A stretch of DNA of 64,000 bases from a virus (Duplodnaviria > Caudoviricetes). Made by a program: the position numbers and the translations under genes. Under the pieces are notes generated by a model, which was not told the DNA's origin, searched no databases, and was given only the letters and a program-made list of their open reading frames with translations. Position 1 is the first letter of the stretch; each line of letters opens with the position of its first letter. The DNA is taken from positions 23,220 through 87,219 of IMG/VR virus record IMGVR_UViG_3300005077_000012; one strand, given 5' to 3'. Shown here one piece after another: positions 21,016 through 51,045 of this stretch.

Positions 21016-22401
21016 TTAGAACCAGCCGAGAGTCGAAGGAGCAACGTTCTTAATCCTGATGTGCTGCACGCCCTTCTTCACTGCCATTGTCCCGAAGAGA
21101 AGCATGAGGAACGGATACACGGCCGCGTTGGTCGGGTACAGATCGAACTTCATCATCGGAAGGAACTGCGCCCACTCGATCGCGTCGTACATCGGGTCCA
21201 TCGTCAGCATGAACACATCCGAACATCCCGGAAGGTTGCTGTTGTAGTCGTAGACGTCTCCGGTGGTTGCCGGAGCTGCCGTGGTAAACGCGTACCGGAC
21301 AGTCGCACCAGTCACGCCACCCTTGATCGACCGATAAATCTTGATACCAGTCGATGCCGGGGAACCGTTGGTAATGTTGAAGATGACGCGATCGCCAGCA
21401 GCAACCCCAGTCACGATCTGCTCGGCAGTCGCCGTACCATCACCGTACTTGTTGACGCCGACGAGCTTGTACACATAGTCGCCAGCGTCAGTCGACGCAA
21501 ACTCAGAGCTTGCGTGTGTGGTATGAGTCACCGAGTTGACTGTGAGGGCACCGGGCCTGCTTGCGGTAATCGACGACGCTGAGGGAGTTGATCCTTCAGC
21601 AATGAAGATGTCCGCGCGGAGCTTCGGGGTACCGAACGGAGTCGGATAATCCTCGAATACGGTGCTACCCGCGTTTGCGCTCCCGGGAGTAAACCGGATG
21701 CGGTCCCTGAGCATCCTTTGAACGTCTGCCATGACCATTGTCGAGCAGAAGAGATCGGTCACCTTACCGAATGACTCGCGGATGTTCCGGGCACCGAGCT
21801 CGATCTTGTTGACGAAGTCCGCGCTGGTGGCGTCCTTGCCTCTGAGGTCGAGAACGTTGGTTGACGGTATCTGAGCGATCAGACCGTCAGGCTGCTCGGC
21901 AACGATTGAGCTGTCCCCGTAAAACAGGGCCTTCTCAAGGTTCCGAATGATCCAGAGCGCGCCTGCGTTTTTCTCCAGAGCCATCGCGTCTTCGATCATG
22001 TTCGAGACGCTGGCCTGCAGCGTAACCTTCCTGAGAGTCTGAAGGTACTTCGCAGTCGCATACGCGCGGGCGATCGTCTGTTCGCCTTCGATTGAGTCGC
22101 CACCTTCAGCAACCCACGCGCCGTCGTTTGCACCGACGTCGGTGCGCTTGTCCCACTGGTGGACCGGCGACTTGATCGGTTGTTTTTTGAGTCTCTGAAA
22201 GAGAACCGCGTCTTCCTGTGAGTGCAGGACGTTGACAAGAGTCGAGTCCAGACTCTCAGGGATGAGTGCCCGGCCACCGGTGAACGCCGCAGCGTCAACA
22301 CCGGAACCAGCAGAGAGGGCCTTGCTGAGGTAATCCAGAGTCTCCTCATTCGCCCGGGAAAAACCCTCGTAGCCGAGGTCTAATTGATTGAGAATATCCA
22401 T
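21016..22401 (-). CDS. Major capsid protein (Herelleviridae/Twort-K-like)
   Basis: 461 aa; propeptide ending LSKA followed by LSAGSG...GGRAL.PESLD, ...AKYL...RKV..., KNA..WI...LEKALFYGD..., C-terminal MPMMK.DL...LLFG...K; synteny protease-scaffold-capsid. Confidence 0.9.
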   Translation of the reverse strand: MDILNQLDLGYEGFSRANEETLDYLSKALSAGSGVDAAAFTGGRALIPESLDSTLVNVLHSQEDAVLFQRLKKQPIKSPVHQWDKRTDVGANDGAWVAEGGDSIEGEQTIARAYATAKYLQTLRKVTLQASVSNMIEDAMALEKNAGALWIIRNLEKALFYGDSSIVAEQPDGLIAQIPSTNVLDLRGKDATSADFVNKIELGARNIRESFGKVTDLFCSTMVMADVQRMLRDRIRFTPGSANAGSTVFEDYPTPFGTPKLRADIFIAEGSTPSASSITASRPGALTVNSVTHTTHASSEFASTDAGDYVYKLVGVNKYGDGTATAEQIVTGVAAGDRVIFNITNGSPASTGIKIYRSIKGGVTGATVRYAFTTAAPATTGDVYDYNSNLPGCSDVFMLTMDPMYDAIEWAQFLPMMKFDLYPTNAAVYPFLMLLFGTMAVKKGVQHIRIKNVAPSTLGWF

Positions 22402-23088: not shown

Positions 23089-23934
23089 CTATCCTCCAAA
23101 ATAATTTTGTATTGTAGGCAATTTTCTTGTGATATATTGTATCAGCTCTGCTGATATGTTCGACGGGTACCCCCGGGACAGGATGAACTCCATCACGTCG
23201 TTATACGACTTGACCTTCCCGCTGGTGATCGCCGCCAGTAACGCGTCAAACACCCGACGGAGCTCCCCGTACGGGATCGAGTAGCCCTGCGCGTTGAACG
23301 TATCGCTCAGCTCCGATCCCTGTAAACTCTCCGGGGTCAACGCGCGCCCCCCGGTAAACGCCTCCGCATTGACCCCATCGCCTGCCATGAGGGCCTTCGC
23401 GAACTGCGCGAACGGGATGATCGAAACATGACCGAGCGTGCCGTCATTGACCGGCTTGTGTGTGATCGCGGTCTCATCCCAGATCACACGCATTATCATC
23501 CCCTTGACACCACCGGCGGACCCCTTCACTTTTTGGATTATTCCGCCGCCCACCGACGCACCGAGCTTCTTCGCCCCGGACAGGATATTCTGCCAGAGAC
23601 CCTGCGAAATCTTGTTCTCTTTATACAGGAACCCTTTTACCAGTGTTTCATTCCGGTCCGTAAATGCGACGTCACTCGGCTCGCCTATGATGTATTGAGG
23701 ATCGTGAATCTGCTTGTGCTTGTGGTCCCACGACAGGACGCCGTGTGTCAGATAGTAATCTGCCGCCTCCTTCAGGGCTTTACAGAAAACCACCTCAGAG
23801 TCCTGATCACGACTCTCATTCGACGCCTGCAGGTACACGTTCCACTTGCCGTCCTCCTCGACACCCTTAACAAGGGCCGACGCAAACGGAGAGTAAAACT
23901 GATCGCCACCCGCTGCCTGTATTGTCCTGCTCAT
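23089..23934 (-). CDS. Prohead protease
   Basis: AS.E.RD.D.EVV....L......G.L.WDH (catalytic His) and LG.SVGG (catalytic Ser) motifs, AITHKPVN; position upstream of capsid gene. Confidence 0.85.
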   Translation of the reverse strand: MSRTIQAAGGDQFYSPFASALVKGVEEDGKWNVYLQASNESRDQDSEVVFCKALKEAADYYLTHGVLSWDHKHKQIHDPQYIIGEPSDVAFTDRNETLVKGFLYKENKISQGLWQNILSGAKKLGASVGGGIIQKVKGSAGGVKGMIMRVIWDETAITHKPVNDGTLGHVSIIPFAQFAKALMAGDGVNAEAFTGGRALTPESLQGSELSDTFNAQGYSIPYGELRRVFDALLAAITSGKVKSYNDVMEFILSRGYPSNISAELIQYITRKLPTIQNYFGG

Positions 23935-24698: not shown

Positions 24699-27590
24699 CT
24701 ACTTAAACGATACGTCGACCCACGCCACCGGCACGATCGCCTTCGGGTTGCGCACACACCACTCATCATGCTGCAGCGGATTGCCGACCCCCGTATAACT
24801 CATAGACATCCCCTTCTTCCCGTATATTGTATCCCACTGAGAATCGTCCCGCTCACGGACGTGATCCCCGGGAGAGACTTTCCCCATCGACGTCCGGCAC
24901 TGGAGCATAACCCCGGAACCGCTCCGGGAGAATGTCCCGGCCACGTACTGCGCGCTCTTCGAGCTCGACTTCGCGAAGTAGATACCATCCCCGAGCAGAC
25001 GCCCGTTCTTCGCCGAACCGACCCGCATCCCGCCTTTAATGATACTGGCCCCGGCCTGAAAGTCCGTTCCGTGGTACAGGTACTGCTGATTGTCCTTTGC
25101 GTTCTCAATCGCTTTGTAGTCCCCGTAATAGTCGTGGTACATGACCTCCATGACCGCATTGACCTGCAACCGGTCTGAACTGTACCCGGACGACTGGTGA
25201 CTCCAGTCCGCCTTGATCTTGTCCATCCACTCCTTCTTCCCGGAGTCGCCCTTCCCTTTCAGGACGATCGTCGGCATGGTCCGGTTCCCCTTCGTCTTCA
25301 TTCCCATACTGATCGCGAGCTGTTCGGTTCTGATACCCTTGATCGCCGTGTGGTAGGCGTCTGACCCCAGCATGAGCTGATCCTTCTTCACTGGATTGTT
25401 CGGTGCGTGCGGTTTCAGACGACCCCAGCTCCACTCCGGGATAACCCGGGACTTCTTCGCCAGAGACCGCACGTTCCAGTTTGCACCGACCGCATACATC
25501 AGACTGGCCGCAGCAACGCCCTGAACGTACTGTGCATTGTACCGGTGATACTCAGACACTGACGCAACCGTCGTGTGGAACTTTCCCCGCAACAGGTTTT
25601 TTCTTACCGACTCATCGGTCTTCCCGAACTCTATCGCCGTACCAGACCGGTCCTTCTTCCACCCACCATACCCCTTGCTCGACGAACGCCACCGCCGCGT
25701 CGACGGACGAACGGCAGTGCTCATCTTCTTACCCATGTAATACTTGACAAGGCCCATTGACCCCGGCATCGCGTCGCCGTAATCCTTGAACCGGACATCA
25801 AAATTCACGACCGAGTTTGAGTACCGTCGATCGCTATCCCGCACCGCGCCGGTACATATTCGCTCCAACCCATTATCCAAATCTACCAGAGAGTACATCT
25901 CCAGAGACATAGCATCTCGATACGGTGTAAACAAGTTCTTCACCGCCTGCATGGTAGACTTCTCGTTGATTGGATACTTCCCCAACGTCCTGCCCGCATC
26001 GATGATCGAGTCAAAATACTCCATCCCTTTCCCTACATATCCACCGGTATTCGGATAGGAGACGTTGATCCCGTTATTCCACTTCACGGTCTTCGCGCGC
26101 ATCATACTCTTCAGATCGTTCGCAATATCACGCCACGTTGCCTCAGGGTTCAGATGCACCTTTTTACTAACCCCGTTACCCCGCGCGACCGCTCCGAGCT
26201 CAACGTAGTCCCGTGACTGCAACCACGAATCTACGGAGTACGCCGAGTCCGGGACAACCACATACTTCTGCAGGAACGCACTGATCGCCGGGTACTTCTT
26301 CCGAAGGGACTCCCCGGCAGCCTTCAGATCGTCATAACTGTACTGCTTCACCGGACCCGAATACGATGACCCAGACCATCCCGTATTCGCCACCTTCCCG
26401 TACTTCTCAAGCCACGGTTTGATAACCTTCTCACCATAGTCCGGATGCAATGCGCCCATTACAAAAGACGTGTACGTTTCAGAATCCCAATGCTGGTGTG
26501 AATTATAAACAACATCATCGATACCCAGCACCGTAAAAAACTCTTGTACCTTCGACGGCAGGTCCTTGTAAACGTCCCTCCAACGCTCGGTCACAGCAAG
26601 CAACTCCGCTCCCGGAATGATCGTGGAGACCAGTGCCCCCGGGAGCCGGTCAAGACTCTGCGTCCCCCGCAGAGAATAATCCAGCTCGCCCAGCTTCTCC
26701 AGCAGGCGCTTGTCATTTTCTTGCGCCTTCAGCAGGTTGATCCACCGCTGTGCAACCACCTGCGACTCCTCAACCTCACGATCAACGGCCGCATCGATAG
26801 CGCCCTGATTATATCCGTACCAGTTCTTCTGGACATACTCCGTAACGCGCTTCTTGTATGCTGCGGTCTTCGCCTCCGCCAGAAACTCCTCCATCTTCGC
26901 CTGCACCTCTTCGAGAAACAGCGGGTCCTCCAGCCACTTTCCATCGGAGCCCATCGGTATATCCGGGGCGATCTTCCCGAACTCGGTCTGCTGCTCCTTC
27001 GTCATCTTGAATATGTTGTCAAGGTTCTTCGACACATACTCCTCGGCCTCCTTGTTCAAGCAGAGCACACCCGTGATATCACACAGGTCCCGGGCATCAT
27101 CGCTGGCCTCACGCCAGTAGAGCTGGTGCTTCTTCGGTGCCTTGTCCAGCTCGGCGTCAGAGGGCCGATCGGAAGACACCGGGCTCGCCTGCCCGGACTT
27201 GCGCTTCTCTTCCTCCTCCTTCTTCTTTTTCTCCATGTTGTCTTTCATCTTGCCCAGACGTTTCTTGCGGGCCTGCTCGTCTTCGTATGCCTTGACGTCC
27301 GCAGGCGTGACCATGCCGTCGTACACCCACTTGCCGTTTGCGTCCTTCCGGACCCACTGCGCGTGCTTCGTCCCGAACCCGTGTATCTTCCGGGTCCCGA
27401 TCGGGAGCGGAGCCCCTTTCCGCAGCGTTTCGAGAAAAATTACAAGGCGCGCCTTACTTATCCCGGCCATGCGCTTGTATACTCCCATCACATAGGCGTA
27501 GTCGTCACCGCGCCCCTCCCGGGCGGCGGCCTCCTTTGCTTTCTCCCACTTCGCCTCGTCGACCGGCTTCCCGTGTATCTTCTTCGGCAT
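24699..27590 (-). CDS. Tagged large protein with C-terminal PARP-family ADP-ribosyltransferase domain
   Basis: Start MPKKIHG at 27590 after GGAGG; tag KGAPLPIGT...KDANGKW; C-terminal YLYHGT...GIYFAKSSSKSAQYV...HDEWCV (H-Y-E triad). Confidence 0.85.
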   Translation of the reverse strand: MPKKIHGKPVDEAKWEKAKEAAAREGRGDDYAYVMGVYKRMAGISKARLVIFLETLRKGAPLPIGTRKIHGFGTKHAQWVRKDANGKWVYDGMVTPADVKAYEDEQARKKRLGKMKDNMEKKKKEEEEKRKSGQASPVSSDRPSDAELDKAPKKHQLYWREASDDARDLCDITGVLCLNKEAEEYVSKNLDNIFKMTKEQQTEFGKIAPDIPMGSDGKWLEDPLFLEEVQAKMEEFLAEAKTAAYKKRVTEYVQKNWYGYNQGAIDAAVDREVEESQVVAQRWINLLKAQENDKRLLEKLGELDYSLRGTQSLDRLPGALVSTIIPGAELLAVTERWRDVYKDLPSKVQEFFTVLGIDDVVYNSHQHWDSETYTSFVMGALHPDYGEKVIKPWLEKYGKVANTGWSGSSYSGPVKQYSYDDLKAAGESLRKKYPAISAFLQKYVVVPDSAYSVDSWLQSRDYVELGAVARGNGVSKKVHLNPEATWRDIANDLKSMMRAKTVKWNNGINVSYPNTGGYVGKGMEYFDSIIDAGRTLGKYPINEKSTMQAVKNLFTPYRDAMSLEMYSLVDLDNGLERICTGAVRDSDRRYSNSVVNFDVRFKDYGDAMPGSMGLVKYYMGKKMSTAVRPSTRRWRSSSKGYGGWKKDRSGTAIEFGKTDESVRKNLLRGKFHTTVASVSEYHRYNAQYVQGVAAASLMYAVGANWNVRSLAKKSRVIPEWSWGRLKPHAPNNPVKKDQLMLGSDAYHTAIKGIRTEQLAISMGMKTKGNRTMPTIVLKGKGDSGKKEWMDKIKADWSHQSSGYSSDRLQVNAVMEVMYHDYYGDYKAIENAKDNQQYLYHGTDFQAGASIIKGGMRVGSAKNGRLLGDGIYFAKSSSKSAQYVAGTFSRSGSGVMLQCRTSMGKVSPGDHVRERDDSQWDTIYGKKGMSMSYTGVGNPLQHDEWCVRNPKAIVPVAWVDVSFK

Positions 27591-27615
27591 GGCTATACCC
27601 CTCCAGTAATCTTGA

Positions 27616-28749
27616 TCATGCGCCCGCCTGCTTTGCCATCGCAGCGTCGAGCATATCATAGTATTTCTTCATACCCGGCGTATACCGGGTCCATGTACAC
27701 CTGCAGTGCGGGTGTTGCGTCCCGGCAGCAACCCACCACTCCCGGGCCTTCCGTCCAAAATTGTTCTTACCCGGCCAGATCGCGGTATACCGGGTCCCGT
27801 CAACCTCTATCGTATCATCACCACCGGACGGGGCCGCATCCAGCAGCACCACGATCCGTCCGTTGATGTGTGTGGCACAGAACGTACAGGCCCCCGGCCC
27901 GGACACCCCACGCATGAACACGAACTCATCCGGAGACGTCACCTTCTCGGCCACCAGATACCCGTTATTAAAATTCGTCGCGGTCTCGGTCTCCGCGATC
28001 CTGCGCCAGTCCCGGTTGAGTGTTGAGAACGTATCGAACAGCTTCCGCTCGGTCTCCCGGGCCGTCAGGCGGTTCTTCTGCGCGTCCAGTATGGACGACA
28101 CCACCGCCCGGCGCGCGCTGTCCGATATATCCTGTATCAACTCCCCGGTATGCACTTCGGAGAAGTCCCTAATGTTCCGGTAGACCTCGTCGGCCGTCAG
28201 CTTCTTTACCTCGGCGTCGACAGCAGGTTTCAGGTCAGTATACGTCTTGCTGATCTGGTCCTCGACCGGCATCCCCTGTAATATCTTACCCAACGCCATC
28301 GCCCGAAGGACCAGAGACTGCTCGACCTCACCGAACAGGTACCCGAAAACACTGTCCAGATCGTGTGCAATCACCTCCCACTCCGCCCGGGTCAGGGCCT
28401 GCCCGGTCGACGGGTTTATGTACGTCGTCCCGTTCAGGATGAACGGATCATCCCCCACGGCCTTGCGAAATTCATCGAAATGGTCCCCCATCCCCTTCGC
28501 GACATCCAGCCTCAACCACTTCGTCGTAATCTCAGTCAGGACCCGCTGCAGCCCCGCCCGCACCTGATCCCGCAGAATATCGCTGAGCTCCTGCAGGGCC
28601 GGGTAGGGCGTCGGCTCGGTTTTCTCGGTATGGTTGTGTGCAACCTCGGCCGGGACCTTCAGGGCCTTCGACAGGGCCTCGACGACTGCCCGGAGCTTCT
28701 GCTCCGCCTTGTCTTCCGGATTGTGTATCTCAATTATGATCTTTTCCAT
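27616..28749 (-). CDS. MuF/SPP1 gp7-like minor head morphogenesis protein
   Basis: RDWRRIAETET..F..G, G.C.FC and terminal HPHCRC motifs of the MuF family; no C-terminal toxin extension. Confidence 0.85.
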   Translation of the reverse strand: MEKIIIEIHNPEDKAEQKLRAVVEALSKALKVPAEVAHNHTEKTEPTPYPALQELSDILRDQVRAGLQRVLTEITTKWLRLDVAKGMGDHFDEFRKAVGDDPFILNGTTYINPSTGQALTRAEWEVIAHDLDSVFGYLFGEVEQSLVLRAMALGKILQGMPVEDQISKTYTDLKPAVDAEVKKLTADEVYRNIRDFSEVHTGELIQDISDSARRAVVSSILDAQKNRLTARETERKLFDTFSTLNRDWRRIAETETATNFNNGYLVAEKVTSPDEFVFMRGVSGPGACTFCATHINGRIVVLLDAAPSGGDDTIEVDGTRYTAIWPGKNNFGRKAREWWVAAGTQHPHCRCTWTRYTPGMKKYYDMLDAAMAKQAGA

Positions 28750-28869: not shown

Positions 28870-31221
28870 TCAGAACAGTCTGTGCCGGAGCCCGACCACA
28901 TACGCCAGACGCCGGATCGCTTTCAGCAGTTTCGGCCCGAAATGCTTTTTCAACAGGCCCTCGAACTTCCCGTCCTCAAACATCGCATAGGTCGGATCGA
29001 CCTCCGGGAACCCCCAGCCGAACGGATTGTCCGCCGCGTCCCCCACCGCATCCATACGCTCGTCCGTCGTCGTATACTCCGGCTGCTTCGCCTTGTACCG
29101 GATAAACTGGTCAAAGGTCCGGGCGAACACCTCGTTGACGTCGCCCCAATACCGGGACCGCTTCGAGTAATAGTCGGAGTGTGTCTGCTTGCGGAATGAG
29201 TGTACGGTAACCTCGGACAGGTGCTGTGAATACATCTCGAACGCTCGGTCCACAACCTTTGCCGGTGCAAAACGTACCCGGTCAACGATCGATTTCAGAT
29301 CGTCCACAGAATAGACTCCCTTCGTCTCCGATACGATCGCAGGACCATGCTTGTCCGGGTCATTCAACGCATTGCGCAGCGTCGAAAGGAACTCATCCGG
29401 CGTAACGGTTCCGTACCGATCATCCGCCTGATTAGCGTTGTGGAGCATGGCACGCAGGCTCGGCTCAACGATCTCAACGAACTTCAGGACATCCAGACCC
29501 TTACGCCCGGCAAGGTCCGGGTGCGCCGTCAGGTACCCGCCGATTTCCGACAACGCCACGGCAGACGACTGATCGATGTACGTCTTGAACGCCGCATGAG
29601 ACGGATTGAATGTCTCCTTGATCTTCTGCTCAAGACCAGACGCCTTGACCCACTCCTTGAACTCGTCGACCAACACCTTCCCGCCCCGGTAAAAAAAGTA
29701 ATGTCCCGCTTCGTGTACGATCGCCCCCGGGTACGACGGGGAGATATTCAACGAATGGTCCTTCTCGACGTAGAACCCGGCCGCCTTCTTCGACGCCTTC
29801 GCAATCCGCAGGATCATCTTCTTCCCGTCTGACGGAACGTAGTCCTTGAAATTGACCACGGACGAGATCGTCGAGAACACCTTGAACAATGCCCGCAGGC
29901 TCGGGGCCGACAGCTTCGCCTCCCTCCCGGGGATGATCGCATCGGTTGTGATCTCCAGACCGATCTCATCCCGGAACGCGGTGACGAGCTTCGCAATCTT
30001 CGGATCAGTCGCCATCAGGTGATCTTTATACCCGGCGGTCCCCTTGACGTACTTCATGATCCGCTTCTTTGAACTCTCATCCGCGAACTTGTTCAGGACC
30101 CCCTCGATCTTGTCGTACGGTATCGGAATGTACGGCAGAACGAGGATCGAACGCCGCGTCGGATTGACATCGGAGAACTGGAGTCCAACCCGGCCGTCAG
30201 TCATCACCATCGAACCGGTTATCCCCAACTTCCCGATCGGCTCACGCTGCATCGCATTGTAGGATTGCCTCAACTGCGCAGCGGCGGCAGTCGCATAACG
30301 CAGATTGGATATGGCGTTCCTCGAAGGAACATCCAGACCGGACTGCACACTCTCAAGGGCCATCAGGTCCTGATACAAGGTTCCCGCCGCGCCGATCGAC
30401 TTCGAGTCCAACAGGCCGTCCTCGAAGTCCTTGAGCTGCTTCCACCCGGTATAAAAGTCTGCCGCGTCCGGCGGCTGCACTTTCTCCCGAACCGCGTCCG
30501 GGAGCGCGTCGAGTTTTTGCTGCAGGCTCTCCAGAACGGCCTTCAGCGCATACTCCATCGACGGAGCCGACTCATAATCCCACGTTGCCGACATCGCGGC
30601 CTCGGCGTCCAGCCCGGGAACCTTCTTTTCCTCAGCCTTCTTCGGAACCACCTTCGGTTTCTCCGGCTTCGGCCGCGTCCACATCGCCACCGACGGCCGC
30701 CCCATAATCTTCTCATCATCGTCCAACTGCACCCGGTCCCACGTCACGATCTCAGCGTTGGCGTCCTCCTTGCTCAGGCGGAAGCGTTCCTGCGCCTCCT
30801 CCAGTGTCAGGTTGTCATACTCGGTAACCGGGCTGCCGTCGACGTGCACAACGAACACACGGTGCGTGTTCGCACGCTTCGCCTTCGGAGCATCGGGCTT
30901 CTTCACCTCCGGGGCCTTCGACCCTTCCATGAGCTTGTGCTTCAGTACATATTTGACGATATCGGTGTCGCCCTTCAGGTCGTGCCCGACTTCGGCCTTC
31001 ACCTTCTCGATGATCTCTTTGCGTCGGTCCGCAGTGAGCTTCGCCCACCAGTCGAGAACCTTTGCACGCTCAGGCCACGGCCGGGCACCCTCATGCACCC
31101 CATCAACGACCTCAACCCACTTCTTATCCGACGCCTTCCGATACTTCCGACCCTTCCATTCCCGGATCGTACCAACCGGGTACGCCTTCCCTTTGATCAT
31201 CAGTCTATAGATTTTTAGCAC
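28870..31221 (-). CDS. Tagged large protein with zincin (HExxH)/LPD1-like C-terminal domain
   Basis: N-terminal tag KGKAYPVGTIREWKGRKYRK...W; IVHEAGHYF and YYS...YW...NEVFARTFDQFI. Confidence 0.75.
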   Translation of the reverse strand: MLKIYRLMIKGKAYPVGTIREWKGRKYRKASDKKWVEVVDGVHEGARPWPERAKVLDWWAKLTADRRKEIIEKVKAEVGHDLKGDTDIVKYVLKHKLMEGSKAPEVKKPDAPKAKRANTHRVFVVHVDGSPVTEYDNLTLEEAQERFRLSKEDANAEIVTWDRVQLDDDEKIMGRPSVAMWTRPKPEKPKVVPKKAEEKKVPGLDAEAAMSATWDYESAPSMEYALKAVLESLQQKLDALPDAVREKVQPPDAADFYTGWKQLKDFEDGLLDSKSIGAAGTLYQDLMALESVQSGLDVPSRNAISNLRYATAAAAQLRQSYNAMQREPIGKLGITGSMVMTDGRVGLQFSDVNPTRRSILVLPYIPIPYDKIEGVLNKFADESSKKRIMKYVKGTAGYKDHLMATDPKIAKLVTAFRDEIGLEITTDAIIPGREAKLSAPSLRALFKVFSTISSVVNFKDYVPSDGKKMILRIAKASKKAAGFYVEKDHSLNISPSYPGAIVHEAGHYFFYRGGKVLVDEFKEWVKASGLEQKIKETFNPSHAAFKTYIDQSSAVALSEIGGYLTAHPDLAGRKGLDVLKFVEIVEPSLRAMLHNANQADDRYGTVTPDEFLSTLRNALNDPDKHGPAIVSETKGVYSVDDLKSIVDRVRFAPAKVVDRAFEMYSQHLSEVTVHSFRKQTHSDYYSKRSRYWGDVNEVFARTFDQFIRYKAKQPEYTTTDERMDAVGDAADNPFGWGFPEVDPTYAMFEDGKFEGLLKKHFGPKLLKAIRRLAYVVGLRHRLF

Positions 31222-32041: not shown

Positions 32042-34783
32042 TTAAATCCGGACCCACTGATCCGCTGCTTCTTTCCTGTAACTCACCCCGGCGCGGGAAC
32101 GCTGCGTCCCGATCGGGAGTGCTCCGCCCCGGTTGAGCTGCCAGTAGCGCTCCTCACGCTTGATACTCTTCGCGAGATCGTCCGGGAGCTCCTGCGACTT
32201 CTTCGCTTTCGCCTCACGGAACTTCTTCGCCACGAACGTCCCGGCGGCGTCAATGCTGGAGAACTCGCCCTGACTCTCCCCACCACGCTCCACGGACACT
32301 TTACCGGAACCGTCGGTGTGCTTCTTCACGGACCACCACTCACCGTCAGGACCTTTTACTGTACCCGATGAATCTCCTTCCATACTCTCAAGGATACCCT
32401 CGGCCTCGGCGGACAACCCGTCGTCCCCGGCAGGCTTCGCATCGGACTCATGTCTCTCTCCAGACGACACACCGTAGTTCTTCACATACTTCTCCACCGC
32501 CTCTTTAACAGTCTTTGACTGCGCCGTCGTCGAAAGGTAATGGAGCCGCTTTGTATCCGGGTCCTTATACCCCAGATCGATCTGTCCGTGATTGGTCTTC
32601 CACCCCTTGATTGTATCCAGATTGATCTGAGGGTCTTTGACTCCCAGCTCCTTCAGCTTGTTTAAAATCGGACGTGCGTTATACTTCGACCCACCACCAG
32701 CAGCGGGCTTGCCCTCTTTCACAGGCTCCCACTTCCCGGCAGCGACCTTCTTGTACTTCTTCCCCTTCCAGTCACGGATTGTCCCGGGCGGAAGTCCTCG
32801 GCCTTTGTTCAGCCAGACCACCGTGTCCTCCTTGCGCAGCTCCTCGATCGCCTTGCTCATGTCTTCCGTTTCGAGAAATTTTGCAGGCGTCTCTGCAACC
32901 TCAAGCTCCGCATCCGGAGTCGTCGTCCCCAGCCCGATATTCCGCTTCGCGTTCAACGTCAATTTCCACTCGTTCATAAATTTCCTCGCCTTAAATAGTT
33001 TGCCCTGCCCTTCTGCCTCCATCGCAGCATCCCGGAGCTTCGACAGGTTTTTCTTCGCCTCTATATGTGTTTGTATCGCCTTCAGATCATCCGGATCAAG
33101 CTCCGACCGCAATGCCGCTTCAGGGACTTCCTTCCATCCCCCGGTCCTCGATGAATGATCATAGTACTCGGCCTCGACTTTGCCCTCGGCAGTCACCCGG
33201 TACCCATTCGCGTCCAGTATGTCCTTGATTGACTCAGGGTCCGCATCTGCCTTCGCCTGATCGTACCGCTCCTGCGCCGACCCGCCGCGCTTCTTCTCCG
33301 CACGCTTCCCGGACTCATGCTTCTCGCGCTCGGCAGCCAGCTCCTTCTCCATCCGGGCCTTGTCATCCGCATCGCGCTTCGCCTGCGCTGCGTCGCGCTC
33401 GGCCTGCGCCTTCTTACCCGCCTCGTATTCCCCGGGAAGCTCGTCGATCCTCTTGCTGACCTTGTCCGCACCCTGCTTCTCGACGATCTTACCCAGCGCA
33501 TTGATCGCCTTCTGCCTGCCCCCCAGCTCCCGGACAACCAGCATCCCGGTCTTCTTGTCAACCAGAGCGTACCCGGCCTTCCCGGACGGGAACGTCATGT
33601 CAAACCCCCAGAACTCCCGGTCAAGGTCCTTCACCTTCGCGGGTTTCATCGACGTACCCTCGGGGACCTTCACCACATTCCCCATGTGATCCGACACCTC
33701 GGTCGGGGCCTTCTCACCTTTCGCTGCGCCCTTGTCCGATTTCTTCACGGCAGCACCGGCCTGCTTGCTTGCCTCGGCAGCCCCGGCCACACCGCCGCCT
33801 TCGCTCGTCGCCTCGACGGTCTTCGCCGCGCCCTTGACGGCGGCCTCACCTTTGCCCGCAGCCTCTTTGATCCCACCCGCAATGTCCTTAACCGAATCAG
33901 ATATGCTCTGTGAACTCGACGTCGACGCCTGCTTCTTTAACCGCTCCAGCATCGCGTCCAGATTGGACTTGTCCTCACTGTCCGGCAGGTTCTTAATGTC
34001 CGACTTCAGCTTCTCATACGTCGCATCCCCGAGCTTCCCGCCCGTCTTCGGGGCCGCATCAGAATCACGCCCTCCCGTACGCACCGCCTTTACCGCAGCC
34101 TTCACCTGCTCATCAGAGGCCCCGGGCTTCAACTTCCCCGTAATTTTGTTAAGTGTATCCACGTCGAGTCCGATATAGTCATTGCTCGCAGAATCCTCCG
34201 CGCTCCACGCCCGCATAACACGGTTCTCCAAAACCGTCTTTTCACCTTTATCCATCTGGGGCTCCCCAGCCTGCGCATCACCTTCAGGCTCGCCCTTCGC
34301 TGCACCCTTGCCACTCTTCACGCGCACCCAGCCGGTGTCTCCCTTGCGGTACTTCTTTCCCTTCCATTCCCGGATAGTCCCGACCGGCAACGCCTTCCCC
34401 TTCTCCAGAGACTCCAGCTCTCGCAGACTCTTCGCTGCACTCTCCATCCTATCAAGACGGGTGTAATAGTCCGGTATCTCGGCCAGATGATCCCGCGCAA
34501 TCTTCTCGGCCAGCTTCGGGTCATCGGTGTGCTCGGCCTCGACCTCGATCCCACGCTTCAACTGCTCCGGGTCCGGGCTCGTCTTCGCGGTCTGACTCCG
34601 GCCCTTACCAATGAAAGACCCCAGAATCGCATAGATCATCTCCTCGACCCCGTGCTTGTTCCACCCATGCGCCTCGGCCCACTCATGGACCTCGTAGTCC
34701 TCCGGCTTCGGGTTCTCACTCAAGAATCGCTCAACCTGCAGCCTGCTCGGGCGTGCCTTATCGAGTTTTTGTACGCGTATCAT
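32042..34783 (-). CDS. Tagged large protein (three tag copies) with N-terminal DUF5661-like domain
   Basis: EQLKRGIEVEAEHTDDP..AEKIARDHL.EIPDYYTRL (DUF5661-like); tags near 34320-34410, 32720-32810 and 32045-32140; low-complexity K/A/E/G linkers. Confidence 0.8.
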   Translation of the reverse strand: MIRVQKLDKARPSRLQVERFLSENPKPEDYEVHEWAEAHGWNKHGVEEMIYAILGSFIGKGRSQTAKTSPDPEQLKRGIEVEAEHTDDPKLAEKIARDHLAEIPDYYTRLDRMESAAKSLRELESLEKGKALPVGTIREWKGKKYRKGDTGWVRVKSGKGAAKGEPEGDAQAGEPQMDKGEKTVLENRVMRAWSAEDSASNDYIGLDVDTLNKITGKLKPGASDEQVKAAVKAVRTGGRDSDAAPKTGGKLGDATYEKLKSDIKNLPDSEDKSNLDAMLERLKKQASTSSSQSISDSVKDIAGGIKEAAGKGEAAVKGAAKTVEATSEGGGVAGAAEASKQAGAAVKKSDKGAAKGEKAPTEVSDHMGNVVKVPEGTSMKPAKVKDLDREFWGFDMTFPSGKAGYALVDKKTGMLVVRELGGRQKAINALGKIVEKQGADKVSKRIDELPGEYEAGKKAQAERDAAQAKRDADDKARMEKELAAEREKHESGKRAEKKRGGSAQERYDQAKADADPESIKDILDANGYRVTAEGKVEAEYYDHSSRTGGWKEVPEAALRSELDPDDLKAIQTHIEAKKNLSKLRDAAMEAEGQGKLFKARKFMNEWKLTLNAKRNIGLGTTTPDAELEVAETPAKFLETEDMSKAIEELRKEDTVVWLNKGRGLPPGTIRDWKGKKYKKVAAGKWEPVKEGKPAAGGGSKYNARPILNKLKELGVKDPQINLDTIKGWKTNHGQIDLGYKDPDTKRLHYLSTTAQSKTVKEAVEKYVKNYGVSSGERHESDAKPAGDDGLSAEAEGILESMEGDSSGTVKGPDGEWWSVKKHTDGSGKVSVERGGESQGEFSSIDAAGTFVAKKFREAKAKKSQELPDDLAKSIKREERYWQLNRGGALPIGTQRSRAGVSYRKEAADQWVRI

Positions 34784-35021
34784 GTTTCTTGCCTCGCTTT
34801 GATTTTTTCATGCTTGAACCTGTATGACTAACGAGTGCCAGAACCTCCGGGATCGGAGAGCACCTGAGACACCCGTAAATATAATTCCCAACACCGCCAT
34901 GCCACGGACCAACTTCCACCCTGAACATCCACTCCCAGCGGAACGAACGCTCACACAACACACACCGTCTCCTCCGAAACGTGAACACCCTGTGCACCCG
35001 GGTCGGCCCACCAGCACGCAC
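34758..35021 (-). CDS. Small Cys-containing hypothetical protein
   Basis: CVLCERSF...CLRC pairs; exact start uncertain. Confidence 0.4.
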   Translation of the reverse strand: MRAGGPTRVHRVFTFRRRRCVLCERSFRWEWMFRVEVGPWHGGVGNYIYGCLRCSPIPEVLALVSHTGSSMKKSKRGKKHDTRTKTR

Positions 35022-35287
35022 TACAGGACCTCCATCAATATCCCGCAGTACTGACCCACGTACAGCTCGCGCTCCACCGGTCCCTCGAACGGGCTATCGT
35101 ACGTCAAGACCCGCTGCTTGTCCGACTCGACAAGGTCCTCGGGCCCGACCTGATCCCCATCCACATCACAATTCGCTCCGACATAAAACGCATCCGGGTC
35201 CAGCGTCTCATACCATGCACCCATCCCGATCAGCGTGCGATTTTCCTCGATACCGCGCCAGTACTCCACAATGTTATACGCCATCAC
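35021..35287 (-). CDS. Hypothetical protein
   Basis: 88-aa acidic ORF overlapping the upstream stop codon. Confidence 0.6.
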   Translation of the reverse strand: MMAYNIVEYWRGIEENRTLIGMGAWYETLDPDAFYVGANCDVDGDQVGPEDLVESDKQRVLTYDSPFEGPVERELYVGQYCGILMEVL

Positions 35288-37317
35288 CGCAACTCCCGCA
35301 TTATAGTCTGATAGATCGTCTCGAAGTGTCCGTTCCAGATCGCTCCACCCTGATCGTACTTCATGAAATTGGCCTTGAACTTCTTCATGCCTTCAACCCC
35401 GTCCTTCTGGACGACCTGATTTTCAAGGAACCGCTTTTTCTGTTCAGGCTTCAGCTTGTATACATACTGCAGGTTGTCCCGTATATGCTGATCAGTCTCC
35501 GGCGTCGTCTTATATCCCCGGGCAAGGAACTTGAACGACCTGAGCGTATAGCGCGGAGAGTGTGGTAACATCTTCGGATTGCAGAACTCCAGCGTCTTGC
35601 CCTCCAGTGCCGAGAGACCCTTCCCGGTCGCATCAATCATCACCCCGGTCAACGGGTCCAACTGCAGCGAGTTGATCGTGAAGTCCCGGGACTCAGCGTC
35701 GCCCTTCAGCCGCCAGCCCTTGACCTGCCACGATGGAACGTCGTCAGAGTGTTTGTGGACCGGCGTGATATCCACATCGACCCCGGCGTCCTTGATAGTC
35801 ACCAACCCCAGCCGGTCATTCAACGACCACGTATTCGCCCACGCCGGATTGAGTCCCTTGACTATGTGCTGCAGCTCGCCGTCAGAGCAGTTCGCAATGA
35901 AGTCAACATCCTTCGAGTCCCCGCCCTGCAGGAAGTCCCGGACGGTCCCACCCACGATCGTCAACGTGAACCCGGCAGCCTTGAACGTCTCACACAGCTT
36001 CCGGTACGTCACCTTCGATTTACCAATACGCGTCTCCATGACCTTCGCCACCGACGCGGCCATCTCCCCAGAGATATGAAACAGGTTTTTATCTTCCAAA
36101 CCATCATACAGCGAGTGCTCCTGTATTACCCCGTCAGGCTTAACGTTCTGCCAGCGTGAGTCGATCACCCGGCCATCGCTCATCTTGATCAGTGCAGTTC
36201 CCTTGTTCCCCAGAGCAACCAGCTTCCCACGCTGACCGGAATACTTCTGGTGCCCCTGCCCGGTATAGACCACACTCTGCCCCTCGATCATCCGGTCCCG
36301 ACGCGTGGTATCCTTTATCAACTGCTGCGCGGCCCCGGCGGCCACATCCTGCAGCTTCCCCACCTTGACACTGACCGCATGGTCCTGTAGCGCCTGCGCC
36401 GCTGCCTTGTTCTGCGCCGGTGTCGGGGCCTTCGCGCCCGGGTTTACCACACCGTCGTACAGCCACTTCCCGTCTGCACCCTTCTTGTACCAATAGTTCC
36501 CGTACTGCTTGCGTGTCCCGATCGGATCGCCGCCCTTCTGCATTTCGAGATATTTTGCAGGCCCGAACCGCATCGTCCTGAAATTAAACAAAGGGACCAT
36601 CATCCCGATCCCCTTCGATAGATCATCCAGATCATCAGCACTCTTCTTGTACCCCAGCCGCTCGCTCAGGGCTTCCTTCGCGGCCTGCTTGCGCTGCGCA
36701 TCCCGCTCAGCCCACTGCGAACCCTTTGCGCTCTCGTCCGGGCCCTTCGCCGGAGCTTCGCCATCCTTCACCTTAACAATCTTCACCGCGCCCTTGATCG
36801 ACTGGACGTTCCCCTGACCTTCCGGGGCTTCAGGATTGAAACGGGTCTGCCACTGCATCGCGAACTTGCCATCCCGGGAATACAGCCGCTTCTGCTCATG
36901 GTCCAGACGCCCACCCCGGAACAACTTCCGGGACTCGTCCCCCAGCTCGCCCATCGCCTCCTCAAACCGGTGCGACAGCTTCGCAGGCGTGTTCACGTAC
37001 GCCGTCGCCATGTCTTCCTTGTCCTCAGTGGACATCTCCCCGGACGACGGGTCCCCGGGCTTGTCCGATCCACCCCCGGGACGCTCGGCACCCTTTTCCT
37101 TCCCAGCACCCAGCGGGGACCACTGCCCCTCGGCAACCTTCCGATACTTTGTTCCACCCCAATCAGCAACGGTCCCGACAGGCATCCGCTTGCCCGCCTT
37201 CACGAACGCCTCCGCGTCAACGCAGTTAACCCCGTGGTACACAGGGCCAGACAGGTCGTCTATCATTTCGAGAATTTTTGCAGGTGCCACAACCGGAAAG
37301 TCTAATATTCGTGCCAT
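35284..37317 (-). CDS. Tagged protein (two tag copies) with C-terminal class II nucleotidyltransferase (CCA-adding/poly(A) polymerase fold)
   Basis: IVGGTVRDFL...KDVDF (motif A, DxD), VDIT (motif C), ESRDFTINSL (motif B), G...D..G.G...L, SPRYTLR (altered motif D). Confidence 0.85.
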   Translation of the reverse strand: MARILDFPVVAPAKILEMIDDLSGPVYHGVNCVDAEAFVKAGKRMPVGTVADWGGTKYRKVAEGQWSPLGAGKEKGAERPGGGSDKPGDPSSGEMSTEDKEDMATAYVNTPAKLSHRFEEAMGELGDESRKLFRGGRLDHEQKRLYSRDGKFAMQWQTRFNPEAPEGQGNVQSIKGAVKIVKVKDGEAPAKGPDESAKGSQWAERDAQRKQAAKEALSERLGYKKSADDLDDLSKGIGMMVPLFNFRTMRFGPAKYLEMQKGGDPIGTRKQYGNYWYKKGADGKWLYDGVVNPGAKAPTPAQNKAAAQALQDHAVSVKVGKLQDVAAGAAQQLIKDTTRRDRMIEGQSVVYTGQGHQKYSGQRGKLVALGNKGTALIKMSDGRVIDSRWQNVKPDGVIQEHSLYDGLEDKNLFHISGEMAASVAKVMETRIGKSKVTYRKLCETFKAAGFTLTIVGGTVRDFLQGGDSKDVDFIANCSDGELQHIVKGLNPAWANTWSLNDRLGLVTIKDAGVDVDITPVHKHSDDVPSWQVKGWRLKGDAESRDFTINSLQLDPLTGVMIDATGKGLSALEGKTLEFCNPKMLPHSPRYTLRSFKFLARGYKTTPETDQHIRDNLQYVYKLKPEQKKRFLENQVVQKDGVEGMKKFKANFMKYDQGGAIWNGHFETIYQTIMRELR

Positions 37318-37428: not shown

Positions 37429-39012
37429 TCACTGGACGATTATACGCAGGACGCGCTCGTCTCCCATTGACTTCTCAAACGCGGCCCGCCAGTCTTCTCC
37501 GGGCTCCTGCCCATCTTCAGCACCATCGCCACCCGGCTCTCCGCCGTCCCCCGGCAGCATCTCCTCACCGGGGACGCCTCCAGCTTCCGGAAGAGCTCCC
37601 TCATCTCCGCCATCGTCAGGCGCGCCTCCGGGCCCCCCCATCGTCTCGGCCTGCTTCGACTGTGCGTATATCTGAACAGCCTGCGGATTGAGAACAACAT
37701 TCGCGTAATCGTCTTCGATCGGATCATCACCGTCCTCCTCCCGCAGCTCATTGATAGTCTTCGTTGTCTCGATCATCTGCCGCCGTATCTGCATCCGCTG
37801 GAGCTCGTCTTCCCGCTCGATCCCGGTGAACTCAAACGACCACTCCGTCGTGACCTTGCGTATGATCTTACCGACGTGCTGCTCAGCGAACGCCAGCAGT
37901 GAACTCAGGCCGCGATCCCGGGACGCCTTAATCCTCGGCTCCCCACTCTCCCCGATGATCGACTGACTGTCATCCGCCTTGATCCCGATCTCAGCAAGGT
38001 CGATCGAGAACACCGCACCGATAACCGACGACAGGAACATCATGAGCTTGTGATATTCCATGTCCCGGTTCGACTGCCCGAGATTTTTGAAGTCCATGCC
38101 GACGCCCTCTTTCCCGCTCGGCAGGATCGGGATATTCCACGCTCCCCCGGCCCCGCTCATGGCCGCGTACCAGTACCGGCGGATTGAGTCCATCTGCGTC
38201 TGCCCGATGTCCCCCATTACCGATATGAACCCCTTCGGCACCCGGTCCCGGACGAGCTGGTCCCGGATGTAGTTATACCCGAACAGCAGCGTCGTGATCA
38301 GGTCAATGCACTGCTCAACCGGAGAGTAACCCCAGCCACGGAACCGCAGGTCCACCCGCTTGTTCTTGTAGTCGAACAGCAGGTCCTCGGACGTGTACTG
38401 GTTGTAAATTTTGTTGTCGATCTCTTGAACGAACCTGATGTCCTTCTTGAATGGACTCTGGTCCACCTCGGTAGTCACGCGCTTGATGTACGCCCCGTCC
38501 AGCAACCAGAACGCGATCGCCTCGCCCTTCCGGTTGTACTGTATCTCGGTCGCCACCTGATCGATGACCAGCGTCTCCCGGATCAGCATCGACAGGTAGT
38601 CGCTGAAGTCGTCCTCGCGGTCTGCATCATACTTGAACCCGGTCTGATCTATGAAGTTATGCAGCTCCCGGATCAGGGCCTGATCCCCCTTGACCGACTC
38701 CTTCCCGTCCCCGTCCATCGTCCGGATCAAATGAAACCCGCGCTTGCCACGCTCCTCGGTGAACTTCGTGAACGGCAGGCACTGGTCGATCCGTGCGTTG
38801 ACGATTGCGTTGATCAGCGGAATACGGTCCACGGTGTTGCGGATCGTAATGTAATTTATTCGGAGCAGCTTCTCCCGGACTCCCCGGAGTGCCCCTGACT
38901 GGACGAACGACATATACTCGGGCATACTCAGCAGTGATTGGAGCTTCGCTGCAGTCGCCTCCATGTTGATCAAGGCCGACCGCCTCTCTCCACGCTTCGT
39001 ACGCTTCGCCAT
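37429..39012 (-). CDS. Portal protein
   Basis: Twort/K-like portal motifs (LVIDQVA.E...R.G....F..LDG..I, GYSPVEQ, NRDME(Y/F)..L......F.ID..EIG, S.D.GL..LL); start MAKRT after GGAG. Confidence 0.9.
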   Translation of the reverse strand: MAKRTKRGERRSALINMEATAAKLQSLLSMPEYMSFVQSGALRGVREKLLRINYITIRNTVDRIPLINAIVNARIDQCLPFTKFTEERGKRGFHLIRTMDGDGKESVKGDQALIRELHNFIDQTGFKYDADREDDFSDYLSMLIRETLVIDQVATEIQYNRKGEAIAFWLLDGAYIKRVTTEVDQSPFKKDIRFVQEIDNKIYNQYTSEDLLFDYKNKRVDLRFRGWGYSPVEQCIDLITTLLFGYNYIRDQLVRDRVPKGFISVMGDIGQTQMDSIRRYWYAAMSGAGGAWNIPILPSGKEGVGMDFKNLGQSNRDMEYHKLMMFLSSVIGAVFSIDLAEIGIKADDSQSIIGESGEPRIKASRDRGLSSLLAFAEQHVGKIIRKVTTEWSFEFTGIEREDELQRMQIRRQMIETTKTINELREEDGDDPIEDDYANVVLNPQAVQIYAQSKQAETMGGPGGAPDDGGDEGALPEAGGVPGEEMLPGDGGEPGGDGAEDGQEPGEDWRAAFEKSMGDERVLRIIVQ

Positions 39013-39065
39013 TCGTTTCTCCGATGTGTGTGTAGTGTGTGAGCCTTCCCTCTCTCTCACCATCT

Positions 39066-47946: not shown

Positions 47947-48014
47947 TGTGGAGAGTGGGAGACTCGAACTCCCAGCCACCCCTTCACTTGAGAGCTACCT
48001 CAAGCTGACTCCCC
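47947..48014 (-). ncRNA. tRNA-like element lacking a D-arm (acceptor stem with G3-U70, canonical T arm)
   Basis: Minus strand: GGGGAGT-CAG-CTTGAG-GTAGCT-CTCAAG-TGAAGGGGTGGCT-GGGAG-TTCGAGT-CTCCC-ACTCTCC-A-CA. Confidence 0.6.
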
Positions 48015-48020
48015 AAACAC

Positions 48021-49224: not shown

Positions 49225-51045
49225 TCATTTTTTTCCTTCCCCGTACCTATCCTTTATCCCACGCAGAAACTCCTCAGAACTTACCTTCTGCAAACGATCC
49301 AGTTCAGCACGCTCAGCCTCAGACATCCCCTTGATATCCCGGATAGACGGGCCCATCATCCGCGCGGCCTCAGCGTCGAAGAACTCGAACGCATCCATGT
49401 TCGGCAACAGCAGACCCGCCTGAAAGCAATACGCTTCAGCCAGAAAGTAGTGGTCCGGGTTCGTATGCACCCACACAAACCGCGACTTCTCCGGGTTGTT
49501 CTCATTGACGTCAAGGATGCGGGTACTCTCGCACACCTGATTGACGTACTGCCCACCATCAATAAACTCCACCGCCTGCGGCAGCAGAAACGACTGCAAG
49601 TCAAACCCCTGCTTGACGTAGTCCAGCAACGCCGTCCGGTCCATCCGAAGCTCCCGATTATCCCGGTTCACGGAGATCACCCGGGTCCCGTCCTGAAAAT
49701 ACGAGCTGTACACGTTCGAGAACGCCGCTTTGAGCTCCATGACCTTGTGTATCTCCGGCATGGCATCCACCACAACGAACCGAGGGCCCCACTCCCGGAT
49801 CACATCTCCCAGCAGACCGAATGACGGCACCGTCATGGCAGCCAGCAACCGGAAATACGTCGCCCCGGACTGCCTGATCACATCACGCACGACAATGTTC
49901 ATCTCAGCCCCGACATCCACACCCATAATACGAATGTTCTGCGTCTTCCCCGGGGTCATCGGCCAGTCATACGGTCGGCAGCACGCCAGCAGCATCGACC
50001 GACTGATCTTCGCCCCGGATGCGGTATACGGCAGCCCGAGGTCGGAGTTATAGAAGACCTGTATCTTCAGGTCATTCCCCTGCGCCTTCTCCCACTTCCG
50101 AACCATATCCGACAGACGGGCCGTCTTACAAAACAGTCGACTGATCCGTCGCCCGGTCCACTCCCGGCCCGGGTAGCCATCGATCCAACGTCCGGGCATC
50201 AGTCTATCTATAGGTTTTCCGCAATCATGTATAACCGCAGGCTCCCGCCCATCAGACCACTCCGGGTCCCGAACCGTGAACCGATGCACCCCCTCCTCCC
50301 GGACAACGTGCCGGAACCAGTCCAACACAAACCACTTCCCGCAGTGCGGACACTTCAGCGTCCAGAGGCCCTGCGAACTTTCTATAAATCGCTCATCAAT
50401 CCCGAACCCTTCGACCGTCGGGTTACTGATCTCCCGGTGATACTGATAGGGGCTGGCGGAATACCGGTCCGGCAGGAGCAACAGGTTCGCCATGTTACAC
50501 CGATCCTTCTCATCAACATACGCCGAGTCCACGGGTATCTCGATGAACTCGTCCTCAACGTTACTCCCCACATACGCGAGCGTCCCCCGGCCGATATGGA
50601 TCAGACTGGTACGATGCGTCCCCCCGGCCACGGACTTCACCAGATCGCGGTACGCCGCCACGCGCCGGTGCAGCTTGAACACCCGGTTATTGACGAACCT
50701 GTTCCGCAGCTCGTACTTCGGAAGAACGTACATGACCGTGTATCCCAGATGCGCGGCCTCCAGATGAGACTGCACAATGAACAGCTCAGACAAACCAGTC
50801 TGAACCGCCTTCTCGACGACATACCGGTGCTTGTTCCCTATCTCATGGTACATCGATACAAGATAGGGCATATCCATGAAGTTCATAGACTCGCCGCGAC
50901 TGTTAACGTGTGACGACTTTGCCCACTGCAGCGCGGGCGTACTGGACTCACTCAACCGAGTCCGGTACGCCGTCATCTGCTTCTGTAACTCCGATATCTT
51001 CGCCTGCATCATCGTCACCCTCACTCGATTGTATGATCGACGCAA
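49225..51045 (-). CDS. terL: Terminase large subunit (GpA/Twort-like)
   Basis: VVEKAVQTGLSE (Walker A variant), YVDEKD (Walker B), SNPT...GID, CPHCG..F.L, N..LG.PY, MGVDVG, VVDAMPE, PDHY..AEAY; start probably MMQAK. Confidence 0.9.
   Translation of the reverse strand: MRRSYNRVRVTMMQAKISELQKQMTAYRTRLSESSTPALQWAKSSHVNSRGESMNFMDMPYLVSMYHEIGNKHRYVVEKAVQTGLSELFIVQSHLEAAHLGYTVMYVLPKYELRNRFVNNRVFKLHRRVAAYRDLVKSVAGGTHRTSLIHIGRGTLAYVGSNVEDEFIEIPVDSAYVDEKDRCNMANLLLLPDRYSASPYQYHREISNPTVEGFGIDERFIESSQGLWTLKCPHCGKWFVLDWFRHVVREEGVHRFTVRDPEWSDGREPAVIHDCGKPIDRLMPGRWIDGYPGREWTGRRISRLFCKTARLSDMVRKWEKAQGNDLKIQVFYNSDLGLPYTASGAKISRSMLLACCRPYDWPMTPGKTQNIRIMGVDVGAEMNIVVRDVIRQSGATYFRLLAAMTVPSFGLLGDVIREWGPRFVVVDAMPEIHKVMELKAAFSNVYSSYFQDGTRVISVNRDNRELRMDRTALLDYVKQGFDLQSFLLPQAVEFIDGGQYVNQVCESTRILDVNENNPEKSRFVWVHTNPDHYFLAEAYCFQAGLLLPNMDAFEFFDAEAARMMGPSIRDIKGMSEAERAELDRLQKVSSEEFLRGIKDRYGEGKK

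Follow-up and report, generated by a model that had tools for sequence, protein, structure and literature searches.

Class II nucleotidyltransferases (NTases), the superfamily of the CCA-adding and A-adding enzymes and of poly(A) polymerase (PAP) I, select nucleotides with an amino acid template, EDxxR, whose D and R have been found irreplaceable in selection for CCA repair (PMC11784652). Replacement of the template arginine in E. coli PAP (R215A) results in random incorporation of A, C and U (PMC2532741). A separate line of work describes, in the parts of the survey available to us, ART-PolyVal, LPD1, InPase, Zeta and further domains as typical of polyvalent proteins, which are predicted to be packaged in phage heads (Iyer et al. 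2017, PMC5512222). Here we report a computational analysis of a 64,000-nt stretch of DNA (the window) from the 87,219-bp IMG/VR virus record IMGVR_UViG_3300005077_000012, which is 96% complete according to CheckV. Directly after the portal gene of this phage lies an open reading frame (ORF) of 677 amino acids (aa) that ends in a class II NTase devoid of both the template and the tRNA-holding part of the known enzymes. Its two short tags, its surroundings of head genes and the small acidic protein encoded just downstream lead us to propose, tentatively, that it is a toxin-like RNA 3'-end NTase carried in the virion. All positions given below are those of the window, and the ORF is laid out as follows.

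35284-37317, minus strand: whole ORF (P0001), 677 aa; in order, tag, 170-aa module, tag, KOW-like barrel and truncated NTase
36574-37317, minus strand: N-terminal module, aa 1-248, with BLASTP homology to L001:6175-7629
37105-37212, minus strand: first tag copy, aa 36-71, core PVGTVADWGGTKYRKVAEGQW (profile and regular-expression match)
36445-36552, minus strand: second tag copy, aa 256-291, core PIGTRKQYGNYWYKKGADGKW (profile match)
36130-36300, minus strand: KOW/Tudor-like SH3 barrel, aa ~340-396 (family alignment and VIA structure comparison)
35287-36093, minus strand: class II NTase, head and neck only, aa 409-677 (Pfam PF01743, AF2 model, VIA)
35899-35952, minus strand: motif A, GGTVRD...DVD, with the catalytic carboxylates
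35935-35952, minus strand: GGTVRD, aa 456-461
35899-35910, minus strand: DVDF, aa 470-473
35761-35781, minus strand: VDVDITP, aa 513-519
35671-35694, minus strand: motif B, ESRDFTIN, aa 542-549 (canonical RRDFTIN)
aa 554-567: motif C equivalent, DPLTGVMIDATGKG
35539-35562, minus strand: motif D position, HSPRYTLR, aa 586-593, in place of EDPxRxLR
35021-35284, minus strand: small acidic partner ORF, 87 aa, isoelectric point (pI) 4.05, whose ATG overlaps the NTase stop codon (TGATG)

The C-terminal domain is a class II NTase of the CCA-adding/poly(A) polymerase type. Its match to the Pfam PolyA_pol head (PF01743; aa 453-576) is far beyond chance, with an E value of 2.8e-17 and 63.7 bits against a cut-off of 23, and a HMMER comparison with PDB sequences returned the Aquifex A-adding enzyme, human and bacterial CCA-adding enzymes and E. 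coli PAP (E 5e-7 and weaker). The AF2 model of aa 249-677, built on a 62-sequence alignment, is a compact and confident enzyme fold with a mean predicted local distance difference test score of 92.7. In VIA comparisons, aa 409-677 superimposed on residues 1-281 of the 424 residues of the T. maritima CCA-adding enzyme (3h38; Z 20.5 over 239 aa, root-mean-square deviation (rmsd) 2.9), on residues 17-311 of E. coli PAP (Z 18.2), on residues 1-256 of the B. stearothermophilus CCA-adding enzyme (Z 17.4) and on the whole catalytic unit of TENT5/FAM46, a structure of ~330 residues (Z 17-18, ~250 aa aligned).

In the HMMER alignment to the Aquifex enzyme (4wby), 'phsprytlr' falls under 'iedpvrilr' and 'aesrdftin' under 'lirrdftin', so that the template residues E, D and R are changed to H, S and Y and the first R of RRD to S, while GGTVRD, DVD, the VDIT strand and the RD..N core are all intact. 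The original prediction, which covered 35284-36050 (aa 423-677 plus the stop codon), had described a CCA/PAP-fold NTase with an intact motif A, a replaced EDxxR and a motif B reading ESRDFTIN instead of RRDFTIN, and on each of these points the database and structure comparisons bear it out. It also turned on the absence of EDxxR from the rest of the protein; a sequence check found no ED..R anywhere in the 677-aa protein or in its 16 relatives (see below). One label has to be corrected: VDIT, taken then for motif C, is the strand between motifs A and B and aligns with the canonical (E/D)hxT. The truncation of the domain, its association with a KOW-like barrel and a small acidic partner gene, and the frequency of template loss elsewhere in the superfamily had not been noticed in that prediction.

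The domain is also truncated. Its last residue corresponds to residues ~256-311 in enzymes of 390-424 residues, just past the neck and the first body helices. It lacks the region that grips the tRNA elbow, with neither a body nor a tail domain, and Pfam gave no match to PolyA_pol_RNAbd (PF12627). The protein departs from a strict CCA- or A-adding enzyme or PAP I in the EDxxR template, in the RRD of motif B and in the C-terminal body and tail. A C-terminal 'Q..KDG..GL' was considered as a new substitute for the template and dropped, since its counterpart in the alignment is the canonical 'EL.K.L....GL' helix with which the body begins. In front of the NTase, the KOW-like barrel matched Spt5 KOW6-KOW7 (5ohq; VIA Z 8.9) and NusG (2xhc; Z 8.8) over 52-56 residues with rmsd 1.4-2.0.

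An exhaustive HMMER scan of 1.84 billion representatives delimited a phage-only family made up of the 677-aa protein and 16 relatives at E < 1e-47, followed by a gap to the next matches at E 6e-30 and weaker. The NTase is C-terminal in all 17 representatives, behind N-terminal parts of 138-674 aa, and the KOW-like region preceding it aligns in at least 16 of them, P0017 being too divergent there to judge. GG, RD, DxD, the D and T of VDIT, RD..N, DATG, LR..KF and Q...KDG..G are invariant in the 17 sequences; altogether the metal-binding carboxylates and about 28 other positions do not vary among members that are only 40-70% identical. Since the positions of the catalytic core are thus preserved, the family appears to be under selection as an enzyme. 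The template position, by contrast with the canonical motif, reads x-[S/A/T/C/N/E]-P-x-[Y/N] followed by x-L-R and never ED..R, and the first arginine of motif B is lost family-wide ([S/A]RD). The template loss is therefore fixed across the family, and canonical CTP/ATP selection cannot operate. In most members the NTase domain has a pI of ~9. Members of the sequence clusters carry only 'hypothetical protein' or generic names; a tblastn search of 50,697 phage records returned distant full-length phage tRNA NTases only (24-32% identity), none with this architecture, a search of genome contigs with the single NTase domain found no relative, and a BFVD fold search retrieved ordinary phage and giant-virus CCA-type enzymes only.

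The phage family is monophyletic (support 0.996), and it is adjoined, with weak support (0.54), by template-less NTases and not by canonical enzymes. The best 150 hits contain 158 domain copies; D..R is missing in 95 of these, 82 of which also lack the first arginine of RRD, whereas 58 of the 63 copies with D..R have RRD. These counts indicate that template loss is a recurrent state of a large uncharacterised radiation and goes along with an altered motif B. NACHT-linked and tandem-repeat relatives, neither of which has a link to virions, share the change to SRD/xRD. In the adjoining clade, template-less NTases of 275-447 aa with the motif B 'RDF[A/T]CN' are followed, with an overlap or within 12 nt, by a NACHT protein of 640-660 aa in all five cases sampled. 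Such cassettes lie at L044:6001-9305, L045, L046:6001-8753 and L047:4001-7008, and also on the contigs of P0024 and P0047; the flanks readable in three loci hold integrases, HsdM and HNH nucleases (L044/L045) and HTH regulators (L047). PADLOC gave no match for the phage NTase or for the sister-clade NTases. The NTase-NACHT pair is a candidate for an undescribed bacterial defence cassette. Tandem relatives contain two to four template-less PolyA_pol domains per protein (P0018, of 7704 aa, from Sorangium sp.; P0022; P0028), and among the multi-copy relatives one carries SLH domains and another a C-terminal EndoU toxin/nuclease. The NACHT pairing and the EndoU fusion are settings of conflict systems and not of housekeeping.

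The phage NTase gene has a companion. An acidic ORF of 85-104 aa (pI 4.05-4.43) has its start codon at the NTase stop codon or only a few bases away from it in the window and in five related loci (L001, L004, L005, L006 and L007). A profile search with this small protein over 5.8 billion proteins retrieved 10 sequences only, and the two new loci with usable context (L048, L049) again place the ORF behind a family NTase, which brings the association to eight of eight loci. The partner had no match in Pfam, PHROGs or PADLOC, and an ESM Atlas search gave nothing usable. A basic enzyme of nucleic acids with a small acidic protein of its own encoded behind it is the usual layout of an effector and its inhibitor.

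The 677-aa ORF is a fusion of two tagged modules, which are separate genes in the nearest relative, the ~86-kb Logan contig L001, whose NTase protein is 63% identical. The N-terminal module shares 62% identity (BLASTP E 2e-85) with the first ~230 aa of a separate 484-aa gene there (L001:6175-7629), and the L001 NTase gene begins at the equivalent of M249. The module belongs to no known family according to Pfam and PHROG searches; when the Pfam threshold was relaxed to E 10 for this module, the tag/KOW region and the small ORFs, the best hit was a chance-level L21e match (E 0.085). What stands ahead of the second tag differs between family members: a zincin HExxH in P0005 and P0007, a zinc finger in P0015 and, in P0008, a Zeta-toxin/AAA_33 P-loop kinase fused to the NTase domain.

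The tag is a beta-hairpin motif of ~30 aa, L-E-K-G-R-K-x-L-P-x-G-T-x-R-x-Y-x-G-x-x-Y-x-K-x-x-x-G-x-W, present in at least 14 of the 17 family members by profile and in 12 by a narrower pattern; in the AF2 model its second copy forms a beta meander whose three strands span model residues 21-24, 27-31 and 37-43. The two tags of the ORF, already noticed in the original prediction, scored E 6e-15 (aa 36-71) and 7e-16 (aa 256-291), values that are partly circular because both copies were in the alignment from which the profile was built; the matches in three other proteins are independent. Over all six-frame ORFs of the 87-kb genome the profile matched seven copies in four ORFs only, those of the 677-aa (two copies), 913-aa (two to three copies), 783-aa and 986-aa proteins, all of which sit between the portal and prohead protease genes. 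At the DNA level, the peptides PAKILEM and PAKYLEM, which belong to the two tags, are encoded by nearly identical sequences, CCTGCAAAA(ATT/TAT)CTCGAAATG, at 37261-37281 and 36542-36562 (both minus strand), and L001 has GTGCAAAAAATCTTGAAATG at the equivalent place.

The ORF starts ~110 nt past the portal gene and opens a 12.6-kb run of minus-strand genes, whose other members, with the head genes on either side, are listed here.

37429-39063: portal gene (Pfam Phage_portal)
34758-35021, minus strand: small zinc-ribbon-like ORF containing two CxxC pairs, located between acidic partner and DUF5661 gene
in the minus-strand run, minus strand: 913-aa DUF5661 protein, tagged
in the minus-strand run, minus strand: 260-aa protein
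28870-31221, minus strand: 783-aa tagged protein; zincin motif HEAGH (aa 503), weak match to LPD1
27616-28749, minus strand: 377-aa protein with weak minor-head/MuF/gp7-like matches
24699-27659, minus strand: 986-aa tagged protein with a C-terminal PARP-type ADP-ribosyltransferase (ART; Pfam PARP E 2.5e-14)
23089-23934: prohead protease, after the minus-strand run
between the prohead protease and the major capsid protein: scaffold-like gene
21016-22401: major capsid protein

The order portal, NTase, DUF5661 protein is repeated in related loci, and the order of the head cluster is the same in L001, L006 and L048. Related loci also carry ART-PolyVal, LPD1, Zeta kinase and PARP-like ART domains; a Zeta/AAA_33-type kinase is encoded near the NTase in L007, and in L006 (7897-8715) and L048 (3551-4786) the gene immediately before that of the NTase encodes an inorganic pyrophosphatase of the polyvalent type (Pfam InPase), a position that fits removal of the pyrophosphate released by the NTase. 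The locus and its relatives thus show what marks polyvalent-type loci, namely a head-morphogenesis cluster beside the portal gene and co-occurrence or fusion with ART-PolyVal, LPD, InPase, Zeta and zincin domains, and on these grounds of gene content a head-cargo context for the 677-aa protein is plausible. Of the earlier suggestion that the protein is tagged for the head, the tags and their setting stand (a gene after the portal, tags in four portal-to-protease proteins, polyvalent domains), and loading into the head itself is plausible.

Three further observations concern the neighbours. The 986-aa protein has homologues at the same position in L001 and L006; the 783-aa protein resembles the metallopeptidase hub of polyvalent proteins and could process cargo; and the small ORF with two CxxC pairs is kept in the nearest relative (L001:9461-9676).

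Building on the fold, motifs, conservation, truncation, gene order and partner gene described above, we consider it a serious possibility, to be held tentatively, that the 677-aa protein is an injected, toxin-like virion-cargo enzyme that adds nucleotides to RNA 3' ends and comes with its own inhibitor or chaperone. The tagged cargo protein would be made late in infection, and in the producing cell the small acidic protein encoded downstream would restrain or escort it; the beta-hairpin tags would load it into the head, from which it would enter the next host together with the DNA. There it would add nucleotides, without CCA specificity, to RNA 3'-OH ends, most likely those of host tRNAs or other host RNAs, and such tailing would be a toxin-like act of host takeover. 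Untemplated addition with relaxed or altered base choice is suggested by the TENT5-like span, the basic surface and the KOW-like barrel; delivery from the head by the gene order and the tags; and a harmful activity that is held back in the producer by the partner gene and the nature of the relatives.

Several points weigh against this proposal. The KOW match is a generic fold match (Z 7-9), and an adjacent InPase would fit any reaction that releases pyrophosphate, not only RNA tailing. The sister relation of the phage family to the NACHT-linked clade is weakly supported (0.54). A role of the small partner as a packaging chaperone or as a specificity subunit fits equally well. The tag is no more than a putative head-targeting element; moreover, the PAKxLEM part of the tag coincides with a DNA motif, TGCA-N7-TCGA/TATA, found across the genome, and as the DNA encoding PAKxLEM is a copy of that motif, part of the 'tag' may be a DNA-level signal.

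Before the alternatives are weighed, the RNA content of the phage has to be described. ARAGORN and Rfam at gathering thresholds detected no tRNA or RNA family in the window or in the 87-kb genome. Downstream of the large terminase gene (49225-51045), on the minus strand at 47949-48015, there is an element resembling a tRNA: it has an acceptor stem of 7 bp, a long hairpin and a T arm whose loop is GUUCGAGUC, and it lacks a D arm; the acceptor is followed by A-CAG, with no encoded CCA. It scored as tRNA-Sec in Rfam at 17 bits (E 0.67), which is below threshold, and was not called by ARAGORN.

The most conventional alternative is that the protein is a CCA- or A-adding enzyme carried in the head to repair tRNA 3' ends under attack by the host, an option that the original prediction had raised beside tailing of host RNAs. 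Membership in the CCA/PAP superfamily speaks for it, as does the tRNA-like minihelix lacking an encoded CCA. The Zeta/AAA_33 kinase, fused in P0008 and nearby in L007, can be counted on the same side, since polynucleotide kinases of repair systems can score on AAA_33. Phage CCA-adding enzymes are, furthermore, thought to serve tRNA repair (PMC7824862). Against this, the D and R of EDxxR are replaced in every family member, body and tail are absent, and the phage has no tRNA gene, while the cognate acidic partner and the relatives in conflict systems suggest an activity that does harm, not one that restores. With two indispensable template residues and the tRNA ruler gone, the 677-aa protein is unlikely to add CCA, so that canonical tRNA CCA repair is unlikely and tRNA-end repair in the wider sense is an explanation to which we give little credence.

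Loss of the base template and of the tRNA-binding parts could be read as a change of acceptor, with the nucleotide transferred to a host protein (nucleotidylylation), or to a nucleotide or small molecule, so that a signal is made or capped and host immune signalling disturbed. The Pol-beta NTases of polyvalent proteins are predicted to modify proteins, according to the available parts of the survey (PMC5512222). The neighbouring enzymes (ARTs, kinase, InPase) are directed at proteins or NAD, and the NACHT-linked relatives could be makers of signals and not effectors. Every solved structure with Z above 14 is, however, an RNA 3'-end polymerase, and an acceptor of nucleic acid agrees with the ribose/primer motif RD..N, with the basic surface and with the KOW-like barrel; we regard a non-RNA acceptor as unlikely, if less so than repair. 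The enzyme might instead act on DNA ends, for example on the 3' ends of the injected phage genome, which it would extend or cap, perhaps using dNTPs. The RRD motif helps to read the ribose 2'-OH and its first arginine is lost here, and a place beside the portal gene would be apt for a protein meeting the DNA end that enters first. Yet the superfamily has, to our knowledge, no member that works on DNA, the NACHT-linked and tandem-repeat relatives show the same SRD/xRD change without a link to virions, and nothing at the locus points to DNA ends, which makes this idea very improbable. That the protein is a binding module without catalysis, or has a purely structural role in the head, is more improbable still: changes in the template and in part of motif B would accord with this idea, but it can hardly be reconciled with metal-binding carboxylates and about 28 positions held constant among such divergent members, or with the compact and confident model of an enzyme fold. 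A small part of the probability is assigned to none of these readings.

If the proposal of an injected RNA 3'-end NTase is true, phage-delivered effectors would gain an activity that is unlisted in surveys of polyvalent or head-packaged proteins, as far as the available parts of these go. The family would also be a natural experiment on a class II enzyme without protein template and tRNA ruler, matched by a large uncharacterised radiation, and the NTase-NACHT gene pair would become a candidate bacterial immune system. A broader view, which we find doubtful, is that template-less truncated class II NTases form an unrecognised effector class on both sides of the conflict, injected by phages with a KOW-like RNA-binding barrel and a private inhibitor so as to tail or cap the 3' ends of host tRNA or other RNA at entry, and coupled in bacteria to NACHT sensors as the killing or signalling arm of an undescribed immune system. 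Being short, the enzyme, its acidic partner and the tag of ~30 aa lend themselves to testing. In the literature searched, we found no paper on the phage NTase family or on NTase-NACHT pairs. The combination of a truncated, template-less, KOW-linked and tagged NTase with a private partner, as it is read from these genomes, was likewise not found there, while the superfamily and this kind of locus are already known.

With the class II tRNA NTases and PAP I, the phage domain shares the head and neck fold (Z 17-20.5, 220-240 aa aligned), GGxVRD...DxD, RD..N, a D..G turn resembling motif C and, following motif D, the LRxxxF helix. It differs from them in that EDxxR has become x-small-P-x-Y, RRD has become [S/A]RD and TT(F/Y)R has become TPxH, and in that it lacks body and tail and lies at the C-terminus of tagged proteins, behind a KOW-like barrel. 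The TENT5/FAM46 non-canonical poly(A) polymerases are likewise compact two-lobed RNA-tailing NTases of the same span; they are eukaryotic, however, and only 10-13% identical, with no relationship detected at the sequence level. NTase toxins of the MenT/AbiEii type, which block tRNA 3' ends, resemble the activity proposed here in untemplated RNA 3'-end addition, in being harmful and in being paired with a neutralising protein, whereas they belong to another NTase family and act in bacterial toxin-antitoxin modules, not as virion cargo. The locus itself and its relatives resemble those of the polyvalent/MuF-type effectors, with which they have in common, to judge from the available parts of the survey (PMC5512222), a head cluster beside the portal gene, modular effector domains and the ART-PolyVal, LPD1, InPase, Zeta, zincin and DUF5661 domains. 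The term 'CCA' does not occur in the text of that survey, in whose available parts the Pol-beta NTases comprise a minimal NTase limited to conjugative elements, RelA/SpoT and GGDEF. Unlike in those effectors, the modules are here split over several genes, each provided with a short beta-hairpin tag.

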